A stretch of DNA of 64,000 nucleotides, from sequence record PQ850631.1; one strand, 5' to 3'. How positions within the stretch are numbered: position 1 is the stretch's first letter; each line of letters starts with the position of its first letter. This document shows positions 6,404 to 63,082 of this stretch, one piece after another. The notes below the pieces were generated by a model. That model worked only from the letters and a program-made list of their open reading frames with translations, was not told the origin of the DNA and did not search any database. Source of the DNA: Escherichia phage VerenaGrendelmeier_Bas101. Both the position numbers and the translations under genes were made by a program.

Positions 6404-6413
6404 AGAGGAAGTT

Positions 6414-6551
6414 ATGCAAAAGATTATTCAGTCACGTTATGTTAAAGTGCGAAATATTAATTGCAACTCTTTGCTTTCTTGGAAATGGGCTGTTTATGAC
6501 TCGATGTTGATTGGCGTTTTAGTGGCAGGAGTGCTATTTAATATTCACTGA
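6414..6551 (+). CDS. small putative membrane peptide (45 aa)
   Basis: AGAGGAAG RBS then ATG 6414; hydrophobic stretch MLIGVLVAGVLF; not in ORF track (under 60 aa). Confidence 0.3.
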   Translation: MQKIIQSRYVKVRNINCNSLLSWKWAVYDSMLIGVLVAGVLFNIH

Positions 6552-6584
6552 ATTCATCGGCAAAGGATTGCCGCGAGTTTTATA

Positions 6585-6850
6585 CGTATAATGACGTATC
6601 ATCCGTATCAAGTAAGTTGTTGTTTTCAAAAGAATCTTACGGATGATACGCGTTGCCGCCGTACCATATAGGAATTCAAATAAATTAATTTAAAATTATA
6701 TATCTAATTTAATTTTATTTTTTTATAAACTCTTATATATGAAAAGTATCCGTATCATCCGTATCATCCGTAGCACACCAGTGATAGCGCGACTTATACA
6801 CCGATACGGATAAAAATACGCCTCATTTTATCCGTATCATCCGTATCACA
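6585..6850. repeat. control region A: conserved 14-mer CGTATAATGACGTA, 9-bp ATCCGTATC iterons and AT-rich tract
   Basis: 14-mer at 6585-6598; iterons at 6597-6610, 6637-6666 (inverted), 6748-6773 (three tandem units), 6803-6812, 6828-6848; AT-rich 6670-6745. Confidence 0.6.
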
Positions 6851-6905
6851 CTAATAAAGGCGCGGCTATATCGGTTGTTATACATATTCAAACCATAATT
6901 ATTGT

Positions 6906-6934
6906 TTGCCTAAGTTTTTTTCATTAGATATAAT
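6906..6934 (+). promoter_or_regulatory. sigma70-like promoter (TTGCCT-17-TATAAT) for head/tail operon
   Basis: -35 TTGCCT 6906-6911, -10 TATAAT 6929-6934, 24 nt upstream of the start of 6958..8379. Confidence 0.5.
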
Positions 6935-6957
6935 ACACAATACTTATTTGAGGGTGG

Positions 6958-8379
6958 ATGCGAATGCAAACGGCACGCGAAATTGACAAAAATGGATTCT
7001 TGACGATTATGGGTTGTCCAATTTCGTCATTTGGCATTTTTGATTATTCTGCTGGTCAAGTTGGTCTTGATGGTGATCCGAATCGCATCGTAAAAGTCTA
7101 TCGCCCTGAGTCAGCGGTGAAAGACCCCGAAGCGATAGATTCATTCAAAAATATCCCTTTCATCGACAATCACGAAATGCTTTCTGGATTTGAAGGTGAT
7201 GAGGATAACACGGCACCCGAAGAGTATGGTGTCGATGGCGTTCTAACTGGCAATGTTTATTATGACAAGCCATGGATGCGCGGCGACCTTAAAGTGTTCA
7301 GCCGTCGTCTTAAGAAGGCCATTGATTCTGGAAAGGTTGACTTGTCTTTGGGCTATGACTGTGAATTCATCATACAGTCTGGAGAGTTTGACGGGCAGCC
7401 GTATGAAGTGGTGCAGACAACTCTTCGCGGCAACCACATTGCTCTCGTGGACGTTGGTCGAGTACCAGGTGCACGGGTGCTGGATGGTCGTTGCTTTGAC
7501 CATCTTTGTTTGACGACTGTAACACCATCCAACGAGGATTTAGACATGCCAAAACCGTTAAAAGGTAAAGCGCGTGATAATGCTGTTGAACAGCTGAAAT
7601 CACTGATCCCTGCGCTCGAACAATTTCTGAATGAAGAGAGTGCTGAAGCTGCTCATCAGGACGAAGTTGAAGTGAAAGCAGAAGAGAAGGACTCAACCGA
7701 AAATCGTGAAGAAGTAATGGTTGATCCAGAAGTCAAGGCAGAAGCAGAAGAAACCCCAGAAGGTGAAGAGAAGTTTGAAGTTGAAACTGAATCTCACGCT
7801 GACGGCGAACTTCCGCAATTGATCAGCCAAATCGAAGCACTTATTGCAAAACTGAAAGGTGGCGCGGTAGGTGATGAAGAAGAAGTTGAAGCCGAAGTCA
7901 AAGACGAAGAAGAAGTTGAAGTCAAGGCTGAAGATGTATCACCTTGCGACAAAGCTGAAGATGTGGTTAGCGGCCTGCAAAACAGCAACGTAAAGGGGGC
8001 TTCGGTCGAAAAAGATGACAAACCGACAAAAGCGGCGAAAGCGTCGCCAGGTCCAGCAAAAGGGGAACACTCAATGGCATCTGATTCAGCAGTTGCTGCT
8101 TTCTACGCTGATTCTGCTCGTAAGAATAGCCTCTACCAGCGCCTGTCTAAAGTTGTTGGTGCCTTTGATCATGCAACTATGGACTCCAAGTCCGTAGCGA
8201 AATATGGCGCTAAAAAGTTAGGCTTGAAGTGCGTTGATGGTGCTGAGTTTGACGTGGTGGATAATTATCTGCGCGGCGTTGAGCACGGTCAAAAACAGCG
8301 TGTAGTCGCAAAACAAAAGGCCGCTGCGGATTCTGCAGCAACTGACGAAGCATTTGAAGCTTGGTTGAAAGGGGAATAA
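6958..8379 (+). CDS. putative scaffolding / prohead core protein
   Basis: 473 aa; globular N-terminal half, then highly acidic E/V/K-rich repeats (EEVEAEVKDEEEVEVKAED); lies between head-morphogenesis and capsid genes. Confidence 0.45.
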   Translation: MRMQTAREIDKNGFLTIMGCPISSFGIFDYSAGQVGLDGDPNRIVKVYRPESAVKDPEAIDSFKNIPFIDNHEMLSGFEGDEDNTAPEEYGVDGVLTGNVYYDKPWMRGDLKVFSRRLKKAIDSGKVDLSLGYDCEFIIQSGEFDGQPYEVVQTTLRGNHIALVDVGRVPGARVLDGRCFDHLCLTTVTPSNEDLDMPKPLKGKARDNAVEQLKSLIPALEQFLNEESAEAAHQDEVEVKAEEKDSTENREEVMVDPEVKAEAEETPEGEEKFEVETESHADGELPQLISQIEALIAKLKGGAVGDEEEVEAEVKDEEEVEVKAEDVSPCDKAEDVVSGLQNSNVKGASVEKDDKPTKAAKASPGPAKGEHSMASDSAVAAFYADSARKNSLYQRLSKVVGAFDHATMDSKSVAKYGAKKLGLKCVDGAEFDVVDNYLRGVEHGQKQRVVAKQKAAADSAATDEAFEAWLKGE

Positions 8380-12668: not shown

Positions 12669-14207
12669 GTGATCAGTCAATCTCGTTATATTAAAATTGT
12701 ATCAGGGGTCGGAGCAGGCGCGGCTGTTGCAGTTCGCAAACTGTCGCTTCGCATCATGACTTCCAATACAGTCCTGCCGCCGGGCATTGTAGCAGAATTT
12801 TCAACTGCTGATGCCGTTGGATCATATTTCGGTTTTTCTTCCGAAGAATACAAGCGTGCAGCATTGTATTTTGGATTCATCAGCAAGCAAATCAACTCGC
12901 CTGATTCAATCAGCTTTTCTCGCGTTGTATCCACGGCGATTCCTGCAATGGTTATCGGCGATACTGAGCCTAAAACGCTTGCTACTTTTCAGGCATTCAC
13001 TGGCGCTATCTTAAGCATCACTTATGACGGCACAGACTACCTGACTGACGCCATCAACCTTTCAGCGGCAACAAGCCTTGCCAACGTAGCGGAACTTTTG
13101 GAAACGGCAATCAACACCAAGTTTGCAGCCGAAGGTGGCACGTCGGTGCCTGCACTTGCTGATGCAGAAGTGTATTGGAATGCCAACACCCAGCAGTTCA
13201 CTTTGGAAGCCGCTACGTCGACCGCTGGTGCTGGAAACCTTTCGATTAACGTCACAGGTCAACCGACAGACCCATCTCAGGCGCTTGGTTGGACGACTAC
13301 TGGCACCGTTACGGTTGCTGGCCAGGGTGTAGCAAGTCCGGTAGAAGCCATCGCGGCATCTGTGGAGATTTCCAACAACTTTGGCTCATTCCTTTTCGCT
13401 GGAGCAGACCGAACGCTGGAAGAAATCACAGCCGTTGCAGCTTGGACTCACTCGCAGAACAATATGTACATGTATCTGTTCTCGACTGCATTCGCCAACA
13501 TTGGCTCATACTATACCGCACTGAAAGGTTACTCAGGCGTTGGTATGATGATCCGTGCAACCAACCTTGCGAATGATTACATCGACCAGGCACCTGCTGA
13601 AATTCTCGCGGCGACAAACTATAATACTGTAAATGCAACTCAAAACTACATGTACTATCAGTTTGACACGCGAAATGTTACTGTATCGACTGATTCACGC
13701 GCAGATACTGCTGATCAAAACCGTGCAAACTATATCGGCGCTACTCAGCAAGCTGGTCAAACGCTCGCGTTCTTCCAGCGTGGTGTTCTGATGGGCGGGT
13801 CTACCGCAGCAGTTGACATGAACACTTATGCCAACGAGATGTGGCTTAAATCTGCTATTACTTCTCAGCTGTTCAGCATGTTCTTGAATCTTGGTCGCGT
13901 GCCTGCAAACGAAGAAGGCAAAGCGACTGTCCAAGCCATGATTCAAGTTGCTGTTGACAATGCGAAGGTTAACGGCACCATCTCTGTCGGTAAGGCGCTG
14001 ACGGAAATTCAGAAACAGTACATCACGCAAACCTCCGGTGACAACACTGCTTGGCGGCAGGTTGAGACTATCGGTTATTGGTTGACTGTCGATTTTGACA
14101 CTGAAACCACTTCCGATAACCGCACCGAATACTATGCAACATACACGCTAATCTACTCTAAAGATGATGCTGTGCGTCGCGTTGAAGGTCGTGACGTTCT
14201 TATTTAA
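12669..14207 (+). CDS. putative tail sheath protein
   Basis: 512-aa ORF immediately upstream of tube-like gene; assignment by order and size. Confidence 0.45.
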   Translation: MISQSRYIKIVSGVGAGAAVAVRKLSLRIMTSNTVLPPGIVAEFSTADAVGSYFGFSSEEYKRAALYFGFISKQINSPDSISFSRVVSTAIPAMVIGDTEPKTLATFQAFTGAILSITYDGTDYLTDAINLSAATSLANVAELLETAINTKFAAEGGTSVPALADAEVYWNANTQQFTLEAATSTAGAGNLSINVTGQPTDPSQALGWTTTGTVTVAGQGVASPVEAIAASVEISNNFGSFLFAGADRTLEEITAVAAWTHSQNNMYMYLFSTAFANIGSYYTALKGYSGVGMMIRATNLANDYIDQAPAEILAATNYNTVNATQNYMYYQFDTRNVTVSTDSRADTADQNRANYIGATQQAGQTLAFFQRGVLMGGSTAAVDMNTYANEMWLKSAITSQLFSMFLNLGRVPANEEGKATVQAMIQVAVDNAKVNGTISVGKALTEIQKQYITQTSGDNTAWRQVETIGYWLTVDFDTETTSDNRTEYYATYTLIYSKDDAVRRVEGRDVLI

Positions 14208-43590: not shown

Positions 43591-44430
43591 TTATTCCGCT
43601 TGATCACCGTCTTCAGCATCGTCGTTGGATTCAACATCGACAAACTCGATGTGGCCCATCTCTTCCAGCTTGCTCAGGTAGGAGCGAACGGAAGCGCCAA
43701 ACAGTTGATCTTTAACTTTCTCGCCCAGCTCATCGATAGACTGTGCCACGCCAACTTCGCCTTCTTTGATCGCAGCCAGAACGCGTCCACGGGTGGAATG
43801 CTCTTGCGGCTGGCTCAGGCCATTACCAGTGTAGATGAAGTGAGTAGCTTTTGCACGACGCTGACCGTTTGCCTTTTTAGCAGCCTTACGTTCTGCGATG
43901 GCTTTGCGACGTTCTTCAGCTTCTTTCTTACGCTGTTCTTTCTGCTGTTCTGCAGCTTCTTTCGCCGCAATCTTAGCAGCTTCACGCTCTGCCTTGCGTT
44001 TCGCTTTAGCTTCTTCTTTGGCCTTCTCTTTTTCGGCCTTCGCTGCAGCACGGGCTTGATCACGCTCTGCTTTCTTAGCAGCAGCTTGTTCAGCTTTCAG
44101 GCGCTTGGCTTCTTCTTTAGCCTTTGCCTTTTCGATTTCTTTCGCTGCTTTAGCGGCTTCACGCTCTGCTTTCTTAGCAGCGGCCTTTTCTGCACGCTCT
44201 TTAGCTTTCTTGGCTGCTTCTTCAGCACGCTTCTGAGCCTTCTCATCAGCAGCCTGCTTGCGTTTCAGCGCAGCTTCTTCACGCTTGGCTTGTTTTTCCT
44301 GCTCACGCTTCTGGCGTTTTTCTTCGGCTTCTTTCTTTTTAGCCAGGCGTTTTTCTTCAGCCACGCGACGACGTTCTGCTGCAGCTGCTTGTTTTTCTTC
44401 TTTAGATAATACTTTGATTGCTTCGGCCAT
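43591..44430 (-). CDS. Lys/Ala/Glu-rich low-complexity protein with globular C-terminal domain
   Basis: about 200 aa of KAEE/AKKA-type charged repeats, then non-repetitive acidic C-terminus; ATG 44430 behind AAGGA. Confidence 0.5.
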   Translation of the reverse strand: MAEAIKVLSKEEKQAAAAERRRVAEEKRLAKKKEAEEKRQKREQEKQAKREEAALKRKQAADEKAQKRAEEAAKKAKERAEKAAAKKAEREAAKAAKEIEKAKAKEEAKRLKAEQAAAKKAERDQARAAAKAEKEKAKEEAKAKRKAEREAAKIAAKEAAEQQKEQRKKEAEERRKAIAERKAAKKANGQRRAKATHFIYTGNGLSQPQEHSTRGRVLAAIKEGEVGVAQSIDELGEKVKDQLFGASVRSYLSKLEEMGHIEFVDVESNDDAEDGDQAE

Positions 44431-44589
44431 GTTCACAGTCCTTAAATAAATTAGTTTATTTTATATTCCCCGTTTGGGATAACTTAATTATGCCTTCAGT
44501 CGCCGCCAGTAGCAACTAAAAACTATGGCGGCGATGCCACTTTAATTAAACTGATTTTCAGTTTTATTTTTCGTAAATTTACGTCAACA

Positions 44590-46260: not shown

Positions 46261-47343
46261 ATGGCTAGTTTAAGAGAAGAAGCAAAAATAATTGAAGAGT
46301 TTTTAACAGAACTCCAAAGAGGCATCCCAGAAGATGAGCGCGTCATGACGGTGTTTGCTCCTGAAGCAACGGTACAGACCGACGAGCGCGGCAAGAAGAT
46401 CAACAGCAGCTTCTGGCCTAAGCCTTGGAAGTTGGGCAAGCCGCTCATGCAGCACCAAAACGGCTATGCTTGCATCAGTTCAATGCGTAAGTCTCCCAAC
46501 CCAAAGACGGGTGAGATGCGATACTGGCGTACAGAGTCGGCCTTTGGTCACGGCATGGCGATGATGGTCGACGACATCGGTCACGGTAAAGGGTCCAAAG
46601 GCGATTTAGATTTGGAGTTCTTTTTCGAGCGACTGAAGCCGACTGTCATAGTCGAGACGTCACCGAACAACCACCAGCTTTGGTACTTCTTTAAAGAACC
46701 GATTGACCATCTTATTCAGTTCAAAGCATTTCTTGGGTCTTTCGTTAACATGGTACTCAAGAAGGGCGGCGACAACACGATTAAAGACGTAACGCGCGTT
46801 GGCCGTGTTCCTGGGTGCATCAACAACAAGCGTGTGACTCACGACGGCCCCTATAAATATGTCGATGAGAACGGCGACCCGTTCCGCTGCCGACTTGTCC
46901 ATGCAGACTACTCCTTGCGCTACACCATCGAAGACATCTGTCAGGCATTCGGCTTTCACGTCGTTATGCCGCAAAAGCGTGAGATTCAAATTGACGTAGA
47001 TGAATACAAGTACGATGCTGTTTGGTATAAAATAGCCCAGCAGATTCTAGCGCGCAACAAGATGGGTGAAGGGTCTGATGGCGACGTCATCGAGAATATG
47101 TCAGGCAAGTGCCGCATAATCTGCCCTTGGGGTGAAGAACACACCAACGGCGACCCGTATGGCGCTTACTTTCGCGGCCCTATCCCTGGTGCAGAACATG
47201 AGTTTGTGTTCGGTTGCGCCCACGACTGTCACCGGAAAGGGGAAGGCAAGAAAGGTTGGACTGCTTTTGTTGAAGCAATCGTCATGCCTTATATTGAGAA
47301 TCAACTTGACATGATAAATCGTCGTGCAGGTGGCATAAAATAG
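46261..47343 (+). CDS. putative primase (primase-polymerase / RepB'-like) with C-terminal Cys/His cluster
   Basis: 360 aa; MMVDDIGHG, SPNNHQLWYF and RVPGCINNK motifs; C-terminal CRIICPWGEEH...CAHDCH. Confidence 0.4.
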   Translation: MASLREEAKIIEEFLTELQRGIPEDERVMTVFAPEATVQTDERGKKINSSFWPKPWKLGKPLMQHQNGYACISSMRKSPNPKTGEMRYWRTESAFGHGMAMMVDDIGHGKGSKGDLDLEFFFERLKPTVIVETSPNNHQLWYFFKEPIDHLIQFKAFLGSFVNMVLKKGGDNTIKDVTRVGRVPGCINNKRVTHDGPYKYVDENGDPFRCRLVHADYSLRYTIEDICQAFGFHVVMPQKREIQIDVDEYKYDAVWYKIAQQILARNKMGEGSDGDVIENMSGKCRIICPWGEEHTNGDPYGAYFRGPIPGAEHEFVFGCAHDCHRKGEGKKGWTAFVEAIVMPYIENQLDMINRRAGGIK

Positions 47344-48652: not shown

Positions 48653-50323
48653 ATGTCAATTAATAATGACAATCTTCCAGAGGATACAGGTGATGAATTT
48701 GGTGCAATCTTTGACGAAATTCAAGATGCAGGCGTTTCGGAAGAAATGCAGGCAGCAGAGCAGCAAGGCACCAGAGCTAAAATCAGCCTTCAACACAAAG
48801 CCGTTGAAAAAGATTCAGAGCGCATGGAGTGTTACGGTGAAGAAGACTTGGTTGAAAGAGCACGCTTGCTCGCCTCACTTCAGGTAATCAAGTTCCCTCA
48901 CTACAAGCCGACCAAAGATGACTTCGTTCTACAGGCAGACCGGACGAGTGACATGAACCGCTATGCGGTGTTCGACGCGTTGTTTGATAAGGGAAGTGGC
49001 ATTGTTCCATTCCCTCACAAAGATACTTTTCGTGGGCGCTTAGTCGACCATCGCGGCGAAACATTCACTGACCGTACCTTGGAAGTCACAGAGATAGTTG
49101 CCGCTGTCGACGCAGCAGGGCTGTCTAACCCAAACTCACGTCAGGTTGCTCAATCCTATAAGGAATGGGCCATGCGTTATCAGCGCGACGACCTGATGGA
49201 CTTCTTCTACAAGAAGCTGCCTGAATGGGACGGTACTGCGCGCATCGAGAAATACCTTATCGAGCTATTCCGACCGTTCGATACAGAGTTAAACCGACAA
49301 ATCGGTGTGTATTTTTGGCTATCGCTCTACAACCGCCTGACCAACCCTGGCTGTCAAGCGCCAATCTCCATCGCGCTCATCGGCGGCCAGAACGCAGGGA
49401 AGAGTTATTTTAGCAAGCTGCTTTGCGAAGCTATTATGAACGACCGCCACGCAACACCGATTCCGTTGAACTTAGCCGCGCAAAACTTCAACCCGTTCTT
49501 GCGAGCTATTACGGGTCGCTCGATTATCGCGAACGTCGGCGAGATGACAGGCTTTAAAAAGGCCGACATCGAAAACATGAAAGCATTCCTGACTAAGACG
49601 GAAGATGACCTGGACTTCAAATTTGAAGATACGCAGGTTAAACCACGCCAGTGGATTGCTATCATGGACGGCAACGAATACGCAGGCATGCAGCGTGATG
49701 ACACGGGCAACCGTCGTGTGTATCCTATCTTTGTTGGCCAACTCGCCGACAAGGACGGGCAACCGAACTGGTCGAAAGATTTCCAAGCTGACCTTTCCAC
49801 TTTGAAAGAAGACGTTTGGCAGCTTATGGCTGAGTGCGCTGCGTGGATGGAGAAGCACGGCGAAGCAGGCTATAACGCGTTTGTTGGTGAAACATCTCGC
49901 ATGCTTACTGAGTTCAGTAAAAACGAGATGGAACGCGCTCGCGGCGTTATCCGTGATGAGATGGTTGACAACGACCTTGTTGAAGTCGTCATCACCGCGC
50001 CTTATGATCGACATCACAGCGGACGCTGGCACATCACCAGTGGTGCTATTGCTATGGGATTCAGAGCGAAGTGCGGCAAGTCGCCTTTCTCTCGTACCCT
50101 TGCGCCGCACATGTCGAAGCTTGGTTTTGAGCCTGCAACCTATCGCAACCAGCGCGGTTACTTTACGCCGCTGATTAAGAATGAAGCAGGGGAATACATT
50201 TCTGATTTGATGACCATCTTAGCGTATCTTATCCGCGATGAGTCTGACCCTGAAGATATTGAATTCTTGAAGAAGGTTATCGAGCGTAAACGTTCTTTGG
50301 GAAGAGATAAGGATGAATTCTGA
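48653..50323 (+). CDS. primase-associated P-loop ATPase/helicase (VirE / D5-like)
   Basis: 556 aa; Walker A IGGQNAGKSY; overall resemblance to phage/plasmid primase C-terminal ATPase. Confidence 0.5.
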   Translation: MSINNDNLPEDTGDEFGAIFDEIQDAGVSEEMQAAEQQGTRAKISLQHKAVEKDSERMECYGEEDLVERARLLASLQVIKFPHYKPTKDDFVLQADRTSDMNRYAVFDALFDKGSGIVPFPHKDTFRGRLVDHRGETFTDRTLEVTEIVAAVDAAGLSNPNSRQVAQSYKEWAMRYQRDDLMDFFYKKLPEWDGTARIEKYLIELFRPFDTELNRQIGVYFWLSLYNRLTNPGCQAPISIALIGGQNAGKSYFSKLLCEAIMNDRHATPIPLNLAAQNFNPFLRAITGRSIIANVGEMTGFKKADIENMKAFLTKTEDDLDFKFEDTQVKPRQWIAIMDGNEYAGMQRDDTGNRRVYPIFVGQLADKDGQPNWSKDFQADLSTLKEDVWQLMAECAAWMEKHGEAGYNAFVGETSRMLTEFSKNEMERARGVIRDEMVDNDLVEVVITAPYDRHHSGRWHITSGAIAMGFRAKCGKSPFSRTLAPHMSKLGFEPATYRNQRGYFTPLIKNEAGEYISDLMTILAYLIRDESDPEDIEFLKKVIERKRSLGRDKDEF

Positions 50324-50970
50324 TGAATAAAGCAATCAACATCGCTAAATTCTTTCAACATCTTGGTGAACTGAACAAAGAAAGTGACGTTCACGGCGAA
50401 GAAATGAACCGGATGATCTCAACCGTGTTGCGTGGCTTTGGTTATGATAAGGACTCAATCACTTGCAAGCGTACAAAGCTTGTTGATGAGTCTTATCTTT
50501 ACTACGTAGAGTTGCGCATCGGGAAAGATGTGATGATCATTGACCCTAAACTGGAAGGGGCGCACTGTTTTGGCGCTCACCCTCGTGCGAGTGAATTCAA
50601 GGGTCGCGGTCGCAACCGAATCCAGAAGCTTGATGACGCAGGTGACTTGAACATTGCCATGTTCCTTAAAGAGTTCCTTGCGCTACCGAAGGTTGCATCA
50701 TCCACTGGTCGTGATGACCCTTGCAAGATTGGATTCCGAACTAAAGATTTGCGCAATGCGCTACGCAAGAAGGGATTTGTGCCTTCTTATGACAACGTCG
50801 CCGCGCTGATGGCTTCAATGGAGGAAGCTGAAGCGATGGACAAGGTGCGCGGCTATTTCCTGAATACAGGCTTCACCATGTATGAATGGCACACGAAGGG
50901 ATTGACTGTCGCCGACTTCATCTATTCATTAGAGCAGAAGTATGTACGCAATATGCAGGCCACAGGATAA
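50323..50970 (+). CDS. hypothetical early protein
   Basis: 215-aa ORF coupled to upstream gene. Confidence 0.45.
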   Translation: MNKAINIAKFFQHLGELNKESDVHGEEMNRMISTVLRGFGYDKDSITCKRTKLVDESYLYYVELRIGKDVMIIDPKLEGAHCFGAHPRASEFKGRGRNRIQKLDDAGDLNIAMFLKEFLALPKVASSTGRDDPCKIGFRTKDLRNALRKKGFVPSYDNVAALMASMEEAEAMDKVRGYFLNTGFTMYEWHTKGLTVADFIYSLEQKYVRNMQATG

Positions 50971-57829: not shown

Positions 57830-58245
57830 TACAGCGTTACGATGTTGATTATTGCACGCAGCACGCTTGCACTTGTGAAGTTGTAAAGGATGATGAAGGC
57901 GGCTATGTTGAATATGAGGACTATGAATCACTACTCAAGCTTAATGAGTCGCTAACAAAAGAGATTGAGCAATACCGCGAGCGCATCAAAGTCGCTGAAG
58001 ATATTATCAAGCTTTTTAGCGAGGCTGTTGAGAAATACAAGGAGCGCAACGTACCGATTAAGGAGGAAGCGTGGACCGTGTGGCGTGGTGGCGATAATCC
58101 GGTGCCTGGTGAGATTGTTGAATACAAGCTGCGCAATGGAGGTGATAAAGTTCTGTCGAGACTTTCTGATCATCTTCACTGGGGTCATATAGGCGCGTTA
58201 AAGGGCAGCGACATCATTGCTTATCGGGTCGTTAAGGAGGGGTGA
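57826..58245 (+). CDS. early protein with shared C-terminal NPVPG...DIIAYRVV domain
   Basis: start at ATG 57826 overlapping upstream stop; CxxC-like N-terminus CTQHACTC. Confidence 0.45.
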   Translation: MIQRYDVDYCTQHACTCEVVKDDEGGYVEYEDYESLLKLNESLTKEIEQYRERIKVAEDIIKLFSEAVEKYKERNVPIKEEAWTVWRGGDNPVPGEIVEYKLRNGGDKVLSRLSDHLHWGHIGALKGSDIIAYRVVKEG

Positions 58246-58694
58246 TGGGCAAACGGCTTATCGCCGCTGGTTGGGCCATACCGAAGTGGGGCCATCGTGC
58301 GCATTACTTTGACGAAGGAGAAGGGCAAAGCCTTTGTGGTCGCGCAACATATTTCGGTGATGAGCGCGTCAGCGGCGATTATATCGATTCGCTTTTAGGT
58401 AAAGGTGATTGCAAGAAGTGCCAAAATATATTAAGAGATATTCTTACGCAAAAAGGATTGCTTGAGCTTGATGAATCGGAAGAAGTAATTGATCTTAAGC
58501 TGGAAGCCAATCACCTTATTAATATGTTCAAGAATTATTACTTAACTAATATGCGCTCAAAGATGCGTAAGGAAGTAATAGAAGAGGTACTCACTTACAA
58601 TCCTTTAAGGATGAATAAAACTAAATTGAAGAAGTTTAATATAATGATAAGGAAGGAATTTAAAAGGCTTGGAGTGAAGAATTTTATATTTTAA
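58242..58694 (+). CDS. hypothetical early protein with Cys cluster
   Basis: 150 aa; CGRATYFGD...CKKCQ; last gene before terminator. Confidence 0.4.
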   Translation: MMGKRLIAAGWAIPKWGHRAHYFDEGEGQSLCGRATYFGDERVSGDYIDSLLGKGDCKKCQNILRDILTQKGLLELDESEEVIDLKLEANHLINMFKNYYLTNMRSKMRKEVIEEVLTYNPLRMNKTKLKKFNIMIRKEFKRLGVKNFIF

Positions 58695-58710
58695 TAGTGA
58701 TTAATGTTAA

Positions 58711-58736
58711 GAGGGCCGATTGGCCCTTTTTGTTTG
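58711..58736 (+). terminator. rho-independent terminator ending early operon
   Basis: GGGCC / GGCCC stem, 4-nt loop, then 9-nt T-run. Confidence 0.65.
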
Positions 58737-58744
58737 CCTGTGGT

Positions 58745-58980
58745 ATGTGAGGATTTATTATCGGATAAAGCGATTGATTTGTGCAAATCTATTAGAGGGT
58801 CATGGGTAGTGAGGATTGTGACGTGAATTTTGTGTCTTGAATATGTGTGCGAATCTGGAAGATTATTGTACTGTGGTGCTGTGGGATTGTAGAGGGAATC
58901 ACTAGGAATTGGAGCGTGTACCGTGGTGTGTGGTCCTGTAGGCTGCGCCGTCTATGGGATTGTCGCTTGAAATTAAAAAG
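58745..58980. repeat. G+T-rich non-coding stretch with GGATTGT repeats
   Basis: plus strand has very few C; GAGGATTGTG at about 58811, GGGATTGTAG at about 58883, GGGATTGTCG at about 58966, plus degenerate copies. Confidence 0.5.
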
Positions 58981-59021
58981 GAGATATAGTTAGCTGGCTA
59001 ACCTTACGCATAGAATTTAAG

Positions 59022-59310
59022 CGTATAATGACGTAAGATTTGGACCTATCCGTAGTTCACTCCACACACTTCTATGGTGCGCCGCGACTGGGTTCAGTGG
59101 TACATCTTACGGATGATACGGATGATACGCGTCGCCGCTATACTTTATACAACTTTGAAAAAAACAATTAACTCCATTTTGAATTAATTTAAATTAATTT
59201 TTTTCTACATCCTCATACTTATACTAAACTTATATTTATACGTATTATCCGTAAGATATAAGTAAAAACAAAGACTTGCGGCAATACGGATGATACGTCA
59301 CGATACGCTT
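59022..59310. repeat. control region B: same 14-mer CGTATAATGACGTA, iterons and AT-rich tract as region A
   Basis: 14-mer 59022-59035; CTTACGGATGATACGGATGATACGCGTCGCCGCTA 59107-59140 matches 6637-6666; iteron copies at 59046-59055, 59243-59257, 59282-59307; AT-rich 59145-59240. Confidence 0.6.
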
Positions 59311-59472
59311 CAACCAGCCAGCAGCGGCTAAGTCATTGATTTGCATAACAAGCGACGAAAGGGATGGATTTCTTTTATACGTATCAAACAGTACACCACG
59401 CACCACGGTCCGTTATCCATCCAGCACTATGATTTGTGTACGTTTATAGCCATAATGAACATCAATCTGCAC

Positions 59473-59501
59473 TTGAATATAATGTCCATCCATTGTATAA
59501 T
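59473..59501 (+). promoter_or_regulatory. sigma70-like promoter (TTGAAT-17-TATAAT)
   Basis: -35 59473-59478, -10 59496-59501 with TG immediately upstream. Confidence 0.4.
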
Positions 59502-59521
59502 TCACACTATTAATTTGCACT

Positions 59522-60010
59522 ATGGGATTTTGCACTATGAGTCAAGATTATGTAGCGATGCCTGAAGACTTTGAAGACCCGCGATTCGCAGAGCACAATC
59601 AGGCTTTATTCGATGAGTTCATTGACCTTGTTATTCAGGGCCATGACATGCGCGCAGCTTTTGCACTAGTATTTGGAATGGAAGTTGCAACGGATAACTA
59701 CACTGGCCAGCGAATCCTTTGCACGCAACGCAATCCATACTACAAGATGCGCTTCAAAAAGCGTATGGAAGAGATGCCACTCAAGGATTTGTGGAGCGTA
59801 AAAGGTGCAATTCACAATTTGGTCAAGCTTGTGCGTGATCCAGAAGTCGCGGCGTCAGCCAAGCTTAATGCTATTCGTGAACTGAATATCATCTATGGCA
59901 TCACGATGATTGATGAAAACGGCAATAGTAAAATGGGCCGTTCTATGGACGATTTCTACAAGGATTTTGGAGAGGCGGCCAAAGAAGGCGAGCAATTCTC
60001 CCGCCACTAG
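59522..60010 (+). CDS. hypothetical protein
   Basis: 162-aa ORF; start region overlaps two TTTGCACTAT copies; start codon uncertain (59522 or 59537). Confidence 0.4.
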   Translation: MGFCTMSQDYVAMPEDFEDPRFAEHNQALFDEFIDLVIQGHDMRAAFALVFGMEVATDNYTGQRILCTQRNPYYKMRFKKRMEEMPLKDLWSVKGAIHNLVKLVRDPEVAASAKLNAIRELNIIYGITMIDENGNSKMGRSMDDFYKDFGEAAKEGEQFSRH

Positions 60011-60029
60011 CCAATTTGCACTATAAAAC

Positions 60030-60063
60030 GGCCCTAGAACACATTGTCTCCACTTCTAGGGCC
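60030..60063 (+). terminator. hairpin after 59522..60010 (weak U-tract)
   Basis: GGCCCTAGAA / TTCTAGGGCC 10-bp stem with 14-nt loop. Confidence 0.35.
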
Positions 60064-60124
60064 ATCGGTAATACGACGGGGAAGGTTGCAACCGTAAACG
60101 CGTTAGAAAGTGTATTATTATAAG

Positions 60125-60388
60125 TCATCTTTTAGTCACCTTACGTAACAATTTACGACCTTCAACCGTCCAATCGAACGACTCCACCAGCAGATTCGCA
60201 CTATAACCTAAGATGATGCGCCCTTTCTCGTTATCGACCCGCCAACAAGTCTCGAATAGCATTCGATTTGCACTATTAACTATCGCCGCAACGCGCGTTG
60301 GGTAAACGCAATTTGCACTATGGTCGTAAAGGGATAAGGTGCGACCACTTCCGATGGACAATGTAGCGATGAGAATAAGCGTATTCAT
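60125..60388 (-). CDS. hypothetical small protein
   Basis: 87-aa ORF; three in-frame TTTGCACTAT copies translate as SAN tripeptides; weak support. Confidence 0.3.
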   Translation of the reverse strand: MNTLILIATLSIGSGRTLSLYDHSANCVYPTRVAAIVNSANRMLFETCWRVDNEKGRIILGYSANLLVESFDWTVEGRKLLRKVTKR

Positions 60389-60438
60389 AAGCCACCAATT
60401 TGCACTATGAAAAGCGACCCCGAAGGGCCGCCATTCGA

Positions 60439-61065
60439 TTAGATAATCTGGAATGTGTAGGACTTGTTGCCGAACTCAAAGTTCAAGCGTCCAGCTTCTT
60501 TAAGCTTCATGCGGAAGCGAATGTGCTTACTATCCGGTAAGCCCAGCGCGGCGAACGCCACGCGGACCGATTTGAACTCGCCTACACCCTCGACCATAAC
60601 GCCGTTACGCGTGAGACGCTTTTGCGCCACTTCCTTGTTATCCCAACTTTTTGCAATACCTTCGCTATTCGAACGGCGATGGGAAGGAGTTCCATTTTGC
60701 ACTACGCAATTTGCACTATCGTTTAGGCCGCTTTTAACGAAGGCTTCATACTCTTCGTCGGTCATCGCGTCGAGTTCTTCCTGGGTCGGCTCGGCCTTTT
60801 TAACGACCGCACGCGCCTTATGCGTTTTTACATCGCTGGACACTTCCTCGCGCGGCTTCGCGTCGGGAATGGGCGATTCGTTGGACGGCTCATCGAGCGC
60901 GTTTAAGGACTCGATTAACGCGATTACGCGAGTCTCGGCGGTACGGCGGTCCGCAAATTTCTTAATCGGCTTCGAACCGGAATTTGCATTATAAAATGCA
61001 ACGAGGTCGGCGGTCTTAGTTGCGATAACGTCGCCGCTAGTCGAGAAACGATTTAAGCTAACCAT
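60439..61065 (-). CDS. hypothetical protein
   Basis: 208 aa; conserved initiation region ATAGGAGTTCATT-ATG. Confidence 0.45.
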   Translation of the reverse strand: MVSLNRFSTSGDVIATKTADLVAFYNANSGSKPIKKFADRRTAETRVIALIESLNALDEPSNESPIPDAKPREEVSSDVKTHKARAVVKKAEPTQEELDAMTDEEYEAFVKSGLNDSANCVVQNGTPSHRRSNSEGIAKSWDNKEVAQKRLTRNGVMVEGVGEFKSVRVAFAALGLPDSKHIRFRMKLKEAGRLNFEFGNKSYTFQII

Positions 61066-61145
61066 AATGAACTCCTATTTGTTAGGGCGCTAGGCGCGAA
61101 AGAATTTTATTAAAGCGCCGCGCGCGACGCTCTAAAAATCCTCTC

Positions 61146-61460
61146 TTACTCTTCGTCGTCTTCGATTAATTCGAGGGCGAAGGCGTAAGCTTTGCTATCG
61201 TAATTAACTAAAACGGCGAGTTCGAACTCGTTAATAAACGCCGTTTTACCGCATAAATTTAATTCCGCATCGACTTCGAAGAATCCGTTTTCGTCGCGCT
61301 CTAAGCGAGAAGCAGCGAGTTGCTCGATTACCGTCGCGTCGTTAATTTCTTCGCCTAAGCGAACGCCGGAGAATTTCGCGAGAATTTCGCCGTAAGTAAG
61401 CGTAACGCCCTGGACTTCGGCGGTTGCGTTTTCGAGGGTAAAGCGGGTAACGATAGCCAT
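61146..61460 (-). CDS. small acidic protein
   Basis: 104 aa ending LIEDDEE; conserved initiation region CTAGGAGTTTATT-ATG. Confidence 0.45.
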   Translation of the reverse strand: MAIVTRFTLENATAEVQGVTLTYGEILAKFSGVRLGEEINDATVIEQLAASRLERDENGFFEVDAELNLCGKTAFINEFELAVLVNYDSKAYAFALELIEDDEE

Positions 61461-61600
61461 AATAAACTCCTAGTTGGGAGAGGCGTTAACGACCTATTCG
61501 TTAACTCATCCCGTCCCGATATGAGTACATTATAATATAGTGTAGAAAAAAGTAAAGCACTTTTTCGATAAAAATGCGATAAATTATTTTATCTTTTTTC

Positions 61601-61628
61601 TTTACTTCTTCGTACACTCGCGTATACT
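61601..61628 (+). promoter_or_regulatory. sigma70-like promoter (TTTACT-16-TATACT)
   Basis: within direct repeat CTTTACTTCTTCGTACACT also found at 62003. Confidence 0.45.
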
Positions 61629-61684
61629 TGTTTATATCGAGACGGGCGATGGCCCTTCCTTCTACTAGCATCGGGAGTTTTATT

Positions 61685-61987
61685 ATGACCACTTTAATCT
61701 CTTCTATCCTTACTTACGACGAAGACCGTTTAACCGTTCGCTCTCTTATCGCCGCCGTTAACGCGGAACTAGAATCCACCATTATTAAGGTCCGCGCGGT
61801 CGCTTTCGTCGGCCTTTCCTTCGACGATATTAAGTACGCCGAACGTAGCGCCATCCGCTTCGCGAAGACCGACGACGAAGCCGTTACCCTTATCGAGACG
61901 GTTACGCCGCGCGGCGAAGCGTTAATTATCGTCGAGTATATCGACGTAGAAGGCGATAAGGCTTATAAATATTTTATTGCAGAATAA
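61685..61987 (+). CDS. small acidic protein
   Basis: start at ATG 61685 behind GGGAGTTTTATT; 100 aa. Confidence 0.45.
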   Translation: MTTLISSILTYDEDRLTVRSLIAAVNAELESTIIKVRAVAFVGLSFDDIKYAERSAIRFAKTDDEAVTLIETVTPRGEALIIVEYIDVEGDKAYKYFIAE

Positions 61988-61998
61988 CGAAAAAGTGC

Positions 61999-62027
61999 TT
62001 TACTTCTTCGTACACTAAGACTATAAT
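61999..62027 (+). promoter_or_regulatory. sigma70-like promoter (TTTACT-17-TATAAT)
   Basis: -35 61999-62004, -10 62022-62027; paralogous to promoter at 61601. Confidence 0.5.
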
Positions 62028-62094
62028 GTTTTATATCGAGAGGGGATGAGGTAGCGAATAGGTCGCTACCCGCCCGACCAACTAGGAGATTATT

Positions 62095-62385
62095 ATGATT
62101 ACTTTAGCCGCTATCCGTTCCGCTCGCGTCGAGACTTCCGAAAACTCTAACGTATTTGGCGAAACCTTAGAGAGCGTTTATCTCTCTAACGTAGACGCAA
62201 CTATCGAACCTATTTATGAGCCGATCAACTTCCTCGACCTTTACAAGTATCGCGACGAGGACATCGTATCATCCCGCGTAACGATTAACGGCTTCGTCTA
62301 TACGATTACCGAAATCGGCGGCGAATATCTCGCTGTACCGCAACTCGGCGGCGAAGTAACTTATTTTAAAATTGTCTCCTTATAA
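62095..62385 (+). CDS. small acidic protein
   Basis: 96 aa; conserved initiation region CTAGGAGATTATT-ATG; 5' UTR hairpin GGTAGCG / CGCTACC 62050-62070. Confidence 0.45.
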   Translation: MITLAAIRSARVETSENSNVFGETLESVYLSNVDATIEPIYEPINFLDLYKYRDEDIVSSRVTINGFVYTITEIGGEYLAVPQLGGEVTYFKIVSL

Positions 62386-62404
62386 TATCCTTCCGTTACT
62401 AATA

Positions 62405-62430
62405 GGCCGCGCTTAGTCGCGGCTTTTCTT
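62405..62430 (+). terminator. rho-independent terminator
   Basis: GCCGCG / CGCGGC stem, 6-nt loop, then TTTTCTT. Confidence 0.55.
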
Positions 62431-62549
62431 CGTCCCTATCTCGATGCGCTTCTCCGCGAAAACTCCTTTATCCTTCCCTTCGTCGTCGCATAATCTTCGT
62501 CGAGATGCGCCTTAGTTCGCATAACAGGTATTACGTTAAATGGAGAACA

Positions 62550-63012
62550 TCGCGTAAGTCCTTGTTTTATATAGACACCTATATCGGACCGTTAGGGCGG
62601 GTCGCGTAAGTCGTTGTTTTATAAAGGCGCAAAACTTTCCCTTCGTTCCGAACTAAAACGAGGAATATGCCGACCCTTCGCCCGAAAATAGTACGCATGC
62701 GAAATCACATGCATCTCGAATAATCCCCACCGATATTATCCTACACGCAATCATTCGCTTTCGAATCATTATGCTTCATATTATTATGCGTCGAATCATT
62801 CGCTTTCGAATTGTAACGCTGGAAACTGTAACGGCGATTGATTATTGCGTTCGTGTGGTTTTTAGGGCATGGGTCTTTTGGTGCGTTTTGGTGCTTGATG
62901 GAATTTGCGGTACACTAATCAAAATACGACACATTTGGTCCACTAACTTTTCAAAGAAAAAGTCCTAGACAGTACCGTACTATTTTGTACCCACAGGAAT
63001 TTGCAGTACACT
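62550..63012. repeat. non-coding region with three families of direct repeats
   Basis: TCGCGTAAGTCnTTGTTTTATA at 62550 and 62602; AATCATTCGCTTTCGAAT at 62749 and 62794; GGAATTTGCrGTACACT at 62900 and 62996. Confidence 0.55.
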
Positions 63013-63082
63013 CCTGCGCGGCAGGCAAAATAAAGGGCCGCCCTAAGCGACCCACGATTCATGGTTAAATCAGCAACACCCA

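Follow-up and report, generated by a model that had tools for sequence, protein, structure and literature searches.

Paired iteron modules in a Wifcevirus genome as candidate replication origins, one of them holding the probable packaging start

Phage P4 carries two clusters of repeats bound by its alpha protein, ori and crr, which lie several kb apart and differ in architecture. Bacillus phage SPP1 has the origins oriL and oriR, with G38P as initiator, and neither of them is known to coincide with pac. Repeat clusters also occur at packaging sites: in P1 pac, SPP1 pacL-pacC-pacR and lambda cosB (beside Nu1) they surround or adjoin the cut, in the neighbourhood of the small terminase gene. Here we describe a module of short repeats (iterons) that is present twice, as modules A and B, in a stretch of 64,000 nucleotides from Escherichia phage VerenaGrendelmeier_Bas101 (PQ850631.1). 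This whole stretch is called the window, and all coordinates refer to it unless another genome is named. The reading that we favour, with moderate confidence, is that A and B are two origin-type modules and that a packaging cut is superimposed on B.

The closest described counterparts are the origins of Staphylococcus aureus pathogenicity islands (SaPIs) and other phage-inducible chromosomal islands (PICIs). SaPI Rep proteins are self-loading helicase-initiators in which a winged helix in the C-terminal domain (CTD) reads short iterons, and the origin, just downstream of rep, consists of a central AT-rich region with at least two iterons per side in opposite directions (PMC9371898). Modules A and B similarly have iterons on both sides of an AT-rich centre with the inner ones opposed, the phage encodes a protein with the fold of the SaPI1 initiator Rep1 (PDB 7PDS), and in relatives from Pbunavirus, Bcepfunavirus and Myosmarvirus the module lies directly downstream of rep. 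In contrast to the SaPI origins (iterons of 5-6 nt), the phage iterons are 8-13 bp long, the module has two copies per genome of which one holds the packaging cut, and rep is 8.7 kb away in the window. The carrier is a virulent 68-kb myophage and not a satellite, and iteron binding by its Rep-like protein is predicted.

The other systems are matched in part. Like ori and crr of P4, A and B are distant clusters of one short repeat, presumably served by one helicase-type initiator, and one cluster stands beside the initiator gene in several relatives; unlike in P4, each site is a complete module with two arms and an AT-rich core, and the distance between them is about 15.5 kb (or 52 kb). As with oriL and oriR of SPP1, there would be two dispersed origin regions with common repeats for one origin-binding protein, but the initiator class differs (G38P versus a Rep/SF3-like helicase) and only here would an origin overlap pac. 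As in P1 and SPP1 pac and lambda cosB, the cut falls between short-repeat clusters by the small terminase gene (terS), with packaging towards terS. Those sites, however, are unique and are not known to be the most AT-rich DNA, whereas here a near-identical uncut copy exists, and Wifcevirus yields a fixed 3.7-kb direct terminal repeat (DTR) instead of headful permutation or cohesive ends. A lambda-type origin is not indicated, as both modules are intergenic and no O/P-like family was found among the replication proteins scanned.

Few phages are used as much in therapy and biocontrol as the PB1-like ones (Pbunavirus, Wifcevirus and relatives). Published accounts disagree on how these phages package their DNA (non-permuted, headful or terminal repeat). 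Wifcevirus genome ends and a tentative Pbunavirus pac site, at the locus of module B, have already been published. The iterons, the two-armed design, the second copy before the protease gene, the concerted evolution of the copies and the link to a Rep helicase are undescribed in the literature that we found by search. Together they would define a cis element, a two-armed iteron module present twice per genome and evolving together with one phage protein, with one copy as the start of the packaged chromosome. For genome rebuilding and engineering, this locates the true ends and the probable origins.

Two collinear copies of one iteron module

Over region B and its flanks, identity to the Escherichia phages ECML-117, WFH, FEC19 and AV128 of the genus Wifcevirus is 94-95%. 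On this similarity the phage is assigned to Wifcevirus and to the PB1-like myophages. Wifcevirus members are 66-72 kb myophages, distantly related to the Pseudomonas PB1-like Pbunavirus (PMC11990801).

The repeats are concentrated in the two modules. Eight exact copies of the 12-mer ACGGATGATACG occur in 64 kb, and all eight lie inside A (five) or B (three). With up to two mismatches allowed, 14 matches were found against 4.05 expected, a number reached in 0 of 100 shuffles. The 8-mer ATGATACG occurs ten times in the window, eight times within A and B, and no further iteron cluster is present anywhere in the window. The elements of the two modules are as follows.

6583-6610, - strand: outer-left iterons of A, TATACGTATAATGACGTATCATCCGTATC
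6636-6661, + strand: inner-left iteron of A, CTTACGGATGATACG, then GC box CGTTGCCGCC
6666-6745: AT-rich core of A, 91% AT, the least stable 80 bp in the window
6747-6775, - strand: inner-right iterons of A, three tandem 9-bp units, TATCCGTATCATCCGTATCATCCGTAGC
6803-6848: outer-right iterons of A, GATACGGATAAAAATACG (+) and TTTTATCCGTATCATCCGTATC (-)
6595 (-), 6639 (+), 6751 (-), 6760 (-), 6833 (-): exact copies of ACGGATGATACG in A
59022-59056, - strand: outer-left iteron-like words of B, CGTATAATGACGTAAGAT and CTATCCGTAG, which the initial annotation called a 14-mer
59105-59137, + strand: inner-left iterons of B, ATCTTACGGATGAT-ACGGATGAT-ACG with a 9-bp period, then GC box GCGTCGCCGC
59141-59240: AT-rich core of B, 83% AT over 100 bp, the second least stable DNA in the window
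59238-59257, - strand: inner-right iteron of B, ATACGTATTATCCGTAAGAT, inverted relative to the left iterons (inverted repeat of 23 nt, 87% complementary)
59268-59311, + strand: GC box and outer-right iterons of B, CTTGCGGCAA then TACGGATGATACGTCACGATACGC
59373-59390: block TTTTATACGTATCAAAC, common to A (6878-6895), the last iteron-like word of B
59109 (+), 59118 (+), 59286 (+): exact copies of ACGGATGATACG in B, with a one-mismatch copy at 59241 (-)

A and B are collinear on the same strand. In both, the order runs from outer inverted words through inner + iterons, a CGCGTyGCCGC box, the AT-rich core and inner - iterons to outer + iterons, and a block TTATACrTATyCAAAC is also common to them. 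The best local alignment (A 6638-6772 with B 59117-59253) scored 65 against 21.3 +/- 2.6 for 200 dinucleotide shuffles, i.e., z = 16.8, and a chained alignment of A 6579-6893 with B 59016-59389 has 227 of 301 positions identical (75%). By these alignments A and B are collinear paralogs, alike beyond the short motifs. The initial annotation had reported the same element order and orientation in both regions, and this is confirmed, with the repeats where it had placed them; the outcome that it named as contrary, an alignment significant in the short motifs only, was not obtained. Its degenerate copies reaching to about 59430 were not recovered; iteron-like words end near 59390, with TTTTATACGTATCAAAC.

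Around the cores the iterons have opposite orientations. In B, + iterons at 59109 and 59118 precede the core, which is followed by a - iteron at 59241 and + iterons at 59286 and 59302; in A, a + iteron at 6639 precedes the core and - iterons at 6751 and 6760 follow it. The right arm of B has one clear inverted iteron copy only. The cores at 6666-6745 (91% AT) and 59158-59237 (84% AT) rank first and second among all 80-bp windows (mean 54% AT, sd 7%), both in AT content and in instability. The copies are separated by about 15.5 kb one way round and by 52 kb the other. A hairpin signal in the cores (single-strand DNA folding z of about -2.7 and -2.9) was set aside, being merely the result of the inverted iterons.

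Some of the smaller elements vary. The inner-left array of A (6639-6650) reads CTTACGGATGATACG, one 9-bp unit short of the CTTACGGATGATACGGATGATACG present in five other Wifcevirus genomes, which looks like copy-number slippage within the array. GC boxes were noted at 6568-6577, 6650-6661, 6858-6870, 59079-59088, 59129-59137 and 59268-59279. In all lineages examined for them (Wifcevirus, Kyle, E217, MTx, BcepF1, L154 and L155), GCCGC-type boxes stand left of the cores and GCGGC-type boxes right of them, despite differing iterons; TGCCGC has 92 copies in the window, and GC-box enrichment is not significant by itself.

The 14-mer CGTATAATGACGTA, which had been proposed as an element of its own, is present but does not appear to be a separate motif: the best reading of its sequence is a degenerate dimer of inverted iterons. 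Upstream of B, other Wifcevirus genomes have GCGTATCATGG or CATACGTATCATGACGTATCAT, words of the CGTATCAT type. In them this flank has been replaced and aligns loosely, and the match to CGTATAATGACGTA is positional, not homologous. CGTATAATGACGTA was not adopted as a -10 promoter element, given the CGTATCAT-type words of the relatives in this loosely aligned flank and a -35 spacing of 13-14 bp. As a query in IMG/VR the 14-mer TTACGGATGATACG was too unspecific, with unrelated contigs among the matches listed.

The pair of modules is found at syntenic sites in Wifcevirus, Kylevirus, Myosmarvirus and Pbunavirus. Within each genome A and B are alike, with local-alignment z values of 16.8 in the window, 38.9 in Kyle (Kylevirus), 43.9 in E217 (Pbunavirus) and about 40 in the Serratia phage MTx (Myosmarvirus). 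Between genera the modules compare at background level, with z at most 4.3 in all 12 comparisons and at most 1.4 in 11 of them. Each lineage has its own repeat words: ACGGATGAT in the window, GGTTATT/AATATCCGAA in Kyle and TAATTTGG/AATTTCC in E217, and further lineage-specific words are GAAAAGT/ACGAAAA, TTATCCGCAAGAT and TAACCGTTT. Within Wifcevirus, module A is near-invariant. A like architecture with its own words lies upstream of terS in each of L154, L155 and BcepF1, and protein-anchored IMG/VR scans contributed one new Wifcevirus genome only.

Judging from these comparisons, module sequences turn over fast while the two copies in a genome stay alike. Such concerted evolution, with words proper to each lineage, is what would be expected of sites that one fast-evolving, phage-specific protein reads. 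That one lineage-specific protein binds both A and B is strongly implied, and the initial suggestion of a shared binding module gains accordingly from the concerted evolution in four genera. A host factor such as DnaA or IHF was rejected as iteron reader, since the words are wholly different among phages of related enterobacterial hosts.

A probable virion DNA end in module B

Module B corresponds to the place of a genome end in related phages. The features concerned are listed below, with a slash marking the cut.

59175/59176: left virion DNA end and left boundary of the DTR by homology with relatives, ...AATTAACTCC/ATTTTGAATT..., inside the AT-rich core of B
59176-62878: stretch equivalent to the DTR of relatives, 3703 bp in window coordinates
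59522-60010, + strand: small terminase gene terS, 162 aa, identified by phmmer against PDB 7UXE (small terminase of phage E217)

The position was derived from Wifcevirus records whose ends had been defined from read ends (PMC6563267) or with PhageTerm (PMC6753283). The WFH record is linear (71,283 bp) with an exact 3,701-bp direct terminal repeat, of which the first base corresponds to window position 59176 and the last to 62878. The same left end is common to five records from three laboratories, i.e., WFH, WFC, Ro157lw (independent, 2018), SP13 and Mansfield; for Mansfield, from the third laboratory and analyzed with PhageTerm, both ends are identical to those of WFH (PMC6753283). From the cut it is 47 bp back to the left iterons, 62 bp on to the right iteron and 346 bp on to the start of terS.

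When ten Wifcevirus genomes are aligned, they are near-invariant to the right of the cut, and to its left three unrelated variants occur. All three retain words of the GATACG type and the invariant AATTAACTCC/ATTTT, and the 15 bp flanking the cut are invariant in the ten genomes, save for one extra A at the SP13 junction. The cut-proximal AACTCC/ATTTT is the only part specific to B as compared with A. The uniqueness typical of a pac site was otherwise not found, the whole architecture recurring in module A.

Ends in related genera fall in the corresponding place. Kyle has an exact 3,603-bp terminal repeat, with modules upstream of terS and in a 515-bp gap before the protease gene, and its left end is inside the AT-rich core of the terS-proximal module. 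MTx has both modules, and its PhageTerm left end is at the left edge of the core of B', the terS-proximal copy; the rep-like gene ends 368 bp before this position, and terS follows 377 bp after it. E217 also has both modules; its terS-proximal copy is annotated as a coding sequence (CDS), probably spuriously. For JG024, 36 of 161 nanopore reads longer than 30 kb begin at 59,376 +/- 5, which its authors proposed as pac site (PMC10913387). In JG024 coordinates this position falls between the left (59,317-59,336) and right (59,447-59,463) iterons of module B'. In Wifcevirus, Kylevirus and Pbunavirus, the left cluster is separated from the cut by 30-47 bp and the cut from the right cluster by 60-70 bp. 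No ends at A are recorded in any of seven end determinations (five from Wifcevirus, plus Kyle and MTx), nor among the long reads of JG024.

The product of terS matches 7UXE over nearly its full length (residues 7-152, E = 6e-34). It has no Pfam match and an 'unknown' PHROG, and its Mansfield ortholog is annotated as terminase small subunit. The distance between terS and the large terminase gene (terL) is about 58 kb, as in E217 (PMC9611059). From the ends mapped in relatives, and so by homology for this phage, packaging very probably starts in B. Module B is at least a packaging or terminus site, whatever its other roles.

The right end of the repeat has signals of another kind. The right DTR boundary, 62878/62879 (...GGGCATGGGTCTTT/TGGTGCG...), lies within a 697-bp non-coding span, 62386-63082, which contains two copies each of AATCATTCGCTTTCGAAT, TCGCGTAAGTCsTTGTTTTATA, GGAATTTGCrGTACACT and, at its very end, TTTTGGTGC, and no ACGGATGAT iterons. 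The right-end words AATCATT and GTACACTAATCA are also present at the right end of Pantoea phage Kyle, unlike the left-end iterons. By its repeats, the region 62386-63082 may carry conserved terminase signals.

A candidate initiator and competing readings

Two genes of the + block upstream of B encode replication proteins relevant to an origin.

46261-47343, + strand: RepB'-type (IncQ-like) DNA primase (Pfam PF16793, E = 4.5e-36)
48653-50323, + strand: Rep-like self-loading helicase, the candidate initiator (rep), 556 aa, with a VapE-like ATPase and a C-terminal winged-helix-like domain

The Rep-like protein matches Pfam PF05272 (E = 1.6e-28) and SaPI1 Rep1 (7PDS), the latter with E = 4e-11 when one sequence is the query and 2.2e-23 when a profile of 24 sequences is used; more than 200 homologs of it were found. 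In an AlphaFold2 model (pLDDT 83, pTM 0.73) its CTD (about residues 431-556) has, at residues 436-504, the a1-b1-a2-a3-b2-b3 topology of a winged-helix-like domain. The best Foldseek matches are the six chains of 7PDS (E = 3.5e-16, 480 aligned columns, TM 0.62 on the target), in a full-length Rep1 alignment that includes the CTD; the next matches (NrS-1, poxvirus D5/E5 and ASFV PrimPol) are nine orders of magnitude weaker. The model identifies this protein as a full-length structural homolog of the SaPI Rep initiator-helicase. With the iterons it would form a candidate initiator-origin pair in a virulent phage.

Orthologs of rep are 44% (E217) and 42% (BcepF1) identical. The CTD is the fastest-evolving segment (20-36% identity, versus 50-64% for the ATPase), and the N-terminus of TerS is 48-64% identical between lineages with unrelated iterons. 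This divergence of segments gives a weak lean toward Rep over TerS as iteron reader.

The position of rep relative to the module differs between lineages. In E217/JG024, BcepF1 and MTx, module B' directly follows the rep ortholog; in L154 one 225-aa gene stands between them, and in Wifcevirus, Kylevirus and L155 they are separated by an insertion of several kb of small genes. In the window, rep ends at 50323 and B begins at about 59022, so that the origin would not lie directly after rep. The junction of module and terS is uninterrupted in every lineage examined. The gene that directly follows the Rep-like helicase in the window (50323-50970, 215 aa, no Pfam match) is also present in L154 and L155 (225-226 aa) and has no counterpart between rep and the module in E217; its product could be a replication accessory protein. 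In the Kyle-like L155 (PP537389.1), a gene for an Ogr/Delta-type zinc finger (13941-14183; PF04606, P2-type late activator) lies between rep and terS.

According to the reading that we favour, A and B would be two copies of one cis-acting module, in which iterons (core ATGATACG, often in 9-bp tandem) and GC boxes surround an AT-rich centre of about 100 bp and the inner iterons face each other. Both copies would be replication origins, recognized by the winged-helix CTD of the Rep-like helicase, which would melt the AT-rich centre, and the RepB'-type primase would prime synthesis. In the centre of B the terminase would make the packaging-initiation cut at 59175/59176; packaging would run rightwards through terS, and the virion would acquire the 3.7-kb direct terminal repeat 59176-62878. 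We infer that the Rep-like protein reads the iterons, that either module can fire as an origin and that A escapes cutting.

An origin function accounts for the anatomy of the modules, their extreme AT-richness, the second full copy far from the DNA ends and the presence of a Rep initiator, which needs an origin. Module A is about as similar to B as it could be in E217, and yet a single read-start site was reported for JG024, so that the shared elements are insufficient for pac recognition; this suggests that the iterons serve a function other than pac recognition. The initial annotation had raised the possibility of dual origins. This gains support from the SaPI-type anatomy and the encoded Rep homolog, with the origin function itself predicted. 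The packaging end in B had been missed.

Several observations weigh against two origins. Cumulative GC skew tracks gene orientation and has no feature at A or B, a measure that has no power to discriminate origins here, and a GC-skew study of Pbunavirus puts candidate origins inside the replication-gene block (PMC12390725). Unlike in SaPIs, rep is separated from B by 8.7 kb and from A by about 25 kb around a genome unit of about 67.6 kb, and the iterons are longer than the SaPI penta- and hexanucleotides (8-13 bp). The module is linked to terS in every lineage examined and to rep only in some, and since the first link is constant and the second variable, a packaging role for B fits at least as well as an origin. 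The argument from domain divergence is weak, the identity of the recognition helix tracking iteron similarity poorly. A terminase cut inside an origin unwinding element would be unusual, and the origin role of the modules is something that we infer for the family as a whole.

The strongest competing explanation, which we consider somewhat unlikely, is that the repeats are recognition elements for TerS. B would then be a pac site like that of P1 or SPP1 pacL-pacC-pacR, and A an uncut second TerS site, serving perhaps in two-site synapsis (as proposed for T4 gp16) or in TerS feedback on the head-gene promoter. This accounts for the cut and for the unbroken link to terS, which is immediately downstream in every lineage examined, and it agrees with a virion end between the repeat arms in four genera with conserved geometry. 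A 9-bp tandem period would suit successive helix-turn-helix (HTH) domains of a ring oligomer, and E217 TerS is a decamer with N-terminal HTH motifs (PMC9611059). However, the same protein had no appreciable DNA binding in vitro (PMC9611059), and lineages with unrelated repeats have a fairly conserved TerS N-terminus. A recognition site is also expected to be unique, whereas A could hardly be more similar to B (z up to 44) and this second copy stays unexplained; if the shared repeats sufficed, ends would be expected at A, and neither the seven determinations nor the JG024 reads contain any. Finally, the least stable DNA of the genome is required by origins and not by known pac sites.

Packaging cut and origin might also be one element. 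A B centre opened by Rep or forked, and not a sequence read by TerS alone, would then be cleaved by the terminase and would set the left DTR boundary, while A would be a second origin, spared for want of the cut-proximal motif. We regard this as unlikely. The authors of SCUT-S1 voiced the idea that an AT-rich pac region might coincide with the origin. The possibility of one site for both replication and packaging initiation is raised again by module B; if true, replication initiation would be coupled directly to packaging across Lindbergviridae, including the therapeutic Pbunavirus phages.

A purely regulatory role would make the modules enhancer-, silencer- or activator-binding arrays that co-regulate the sigma-70 promoters of terS and of the protease/scaffold/capsid operon. 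The promoters in question are these.

6906-6934, + strand: sigma-70-like promoter of the prohead protease/scaffold/capsid operon, TTGCCT-17-TATAAT
59456-59501, + strand: two overlapping near-consensus sigma-70-like promoters just 5' of terS, TGAACA-16-TATAAT and TTGAAT-17-TATAAT

The gene downstream of A (6958-8379) encodes the head maturation protease (phrog_3778, E = 3.9e-171), and the terS promoters at 59456-59501 are invariant across the ten aligned genomes. A strong sigma-70-like promoter (6906-6934 and 59473-59501) closes each module, immediately ahead of a morphogenesis gene, and the TTATACrTATyCAAAC block of both modules would fit a shared regulator, as would the conserved AT-rich boxes and motifs in PB1-like intergenic regions for which Garbe et al. 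suggested phage-specific transcription signals (PMC3008698). We nevertheless consider such a role improbable, because iterons occur at no other promoter in the 64 kb, including those of terL, portal and tail genes, because they lie 100-450 bp upstream of the promoters at distances that differ between A and B, and because the virion end in the core and the extreme core instability would be left unexplained. It is hardly credible that A and B arose as two insertions of a small element, mobile or recombinogenic, or that they are a neutral duplication without dedicated function: two dispersed copies with inverted-repeat arms, and a left flank of B that is mosaic among Wifcevirus genomes, would agree with this, but both copies occupy the same syntenic positions in four genera, and an architecture kept despite complete sequence turnover, together with a near-invariant A in Wifcevirus, indicates selection and not drift or mobility.

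Surrounding genes and signals

Window position 1 is the A of the terL start codon (ATG). The structural genes (1 to 28.5 kb) lie on the + strand, and those for replication and nucleotide metabolism (28.8 to 46.1 kb) on the - strand. Between 46.3 and 60.0 kb the + strand again encodes the primase, the helicase and many small proteins, and the genes beyond are on the - strand. With open reading frames (ORFs) of at least 80 aa considered, the longest ORF-free stretch in the window is 58695-59521 (827 bp), followed by 62386-63082 (697 bp) and 6404-6957 (554 bp). B was therefore rightly placed, in the earlier description, within the largest non-coding span, of about 800 bp. No Rfam family reached its gathering score in the whole window, and no tRNA or tmRNA was found in it. 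Further features near the modules are given below.

6558-6573, + strand: terminator-like hairpin before module A, CGGCAA-AGGA-TTGCCG, then a T-rich tail
58713-58731, + strand: intrinsic terminator, GGGCC-GATT-GGCCC then a T run, which closes the long + block of small genes upstream of B
58736-58990, + strand: G/T-rich spacer with strand bias, in which three GGATTGT-type repeats are spaced by about 72 bp and GTGAGGATT occurs twice

The terminator at 58713-58731 is also annotated as such in phage WFH. GC skew is +0.34 in 58001-59000, which spans the spacer. The spacer itself is not conserved across Wifcevirus, with unrelated sequence instead in WFC-type and Bas99-type genomes; in E217 and JG024 a stretch of similar composition stands ahead of module B'.

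In public records, small 'hypothetical protein' genes overlie B-type iterons and the AT-rich core, and their frame and strand vary by annotator. Such genes are the following.

E217: vBPaeME217_00077 (L014 1989-2609)
JG024: PJG24_078
Bas99: Bas99_0090-0093
SP13: SP13_001
Mansfield: CPT_Mansfield_001

The small genes annotated across module B in those records are probably spurious calls.

Two repeats outside the modules were also noted. The motif TTTGCACTAT(G) occurs twice at the start of terS (59514-59540) and about four more times within 60014-60401, where the downstream copies lie among small genes of the - strand in the first 400 bp 3' of terS; its role may be that of a phage-specific promoter or operator word. 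Outside module A, repeated 8-mers are densest at 43.5-44.3 kb (13 word families), in an ORF of the - strand at 43591-44436 (281 aa), which suggests that its product, without a Pfam match, is an internally repetitive protein.

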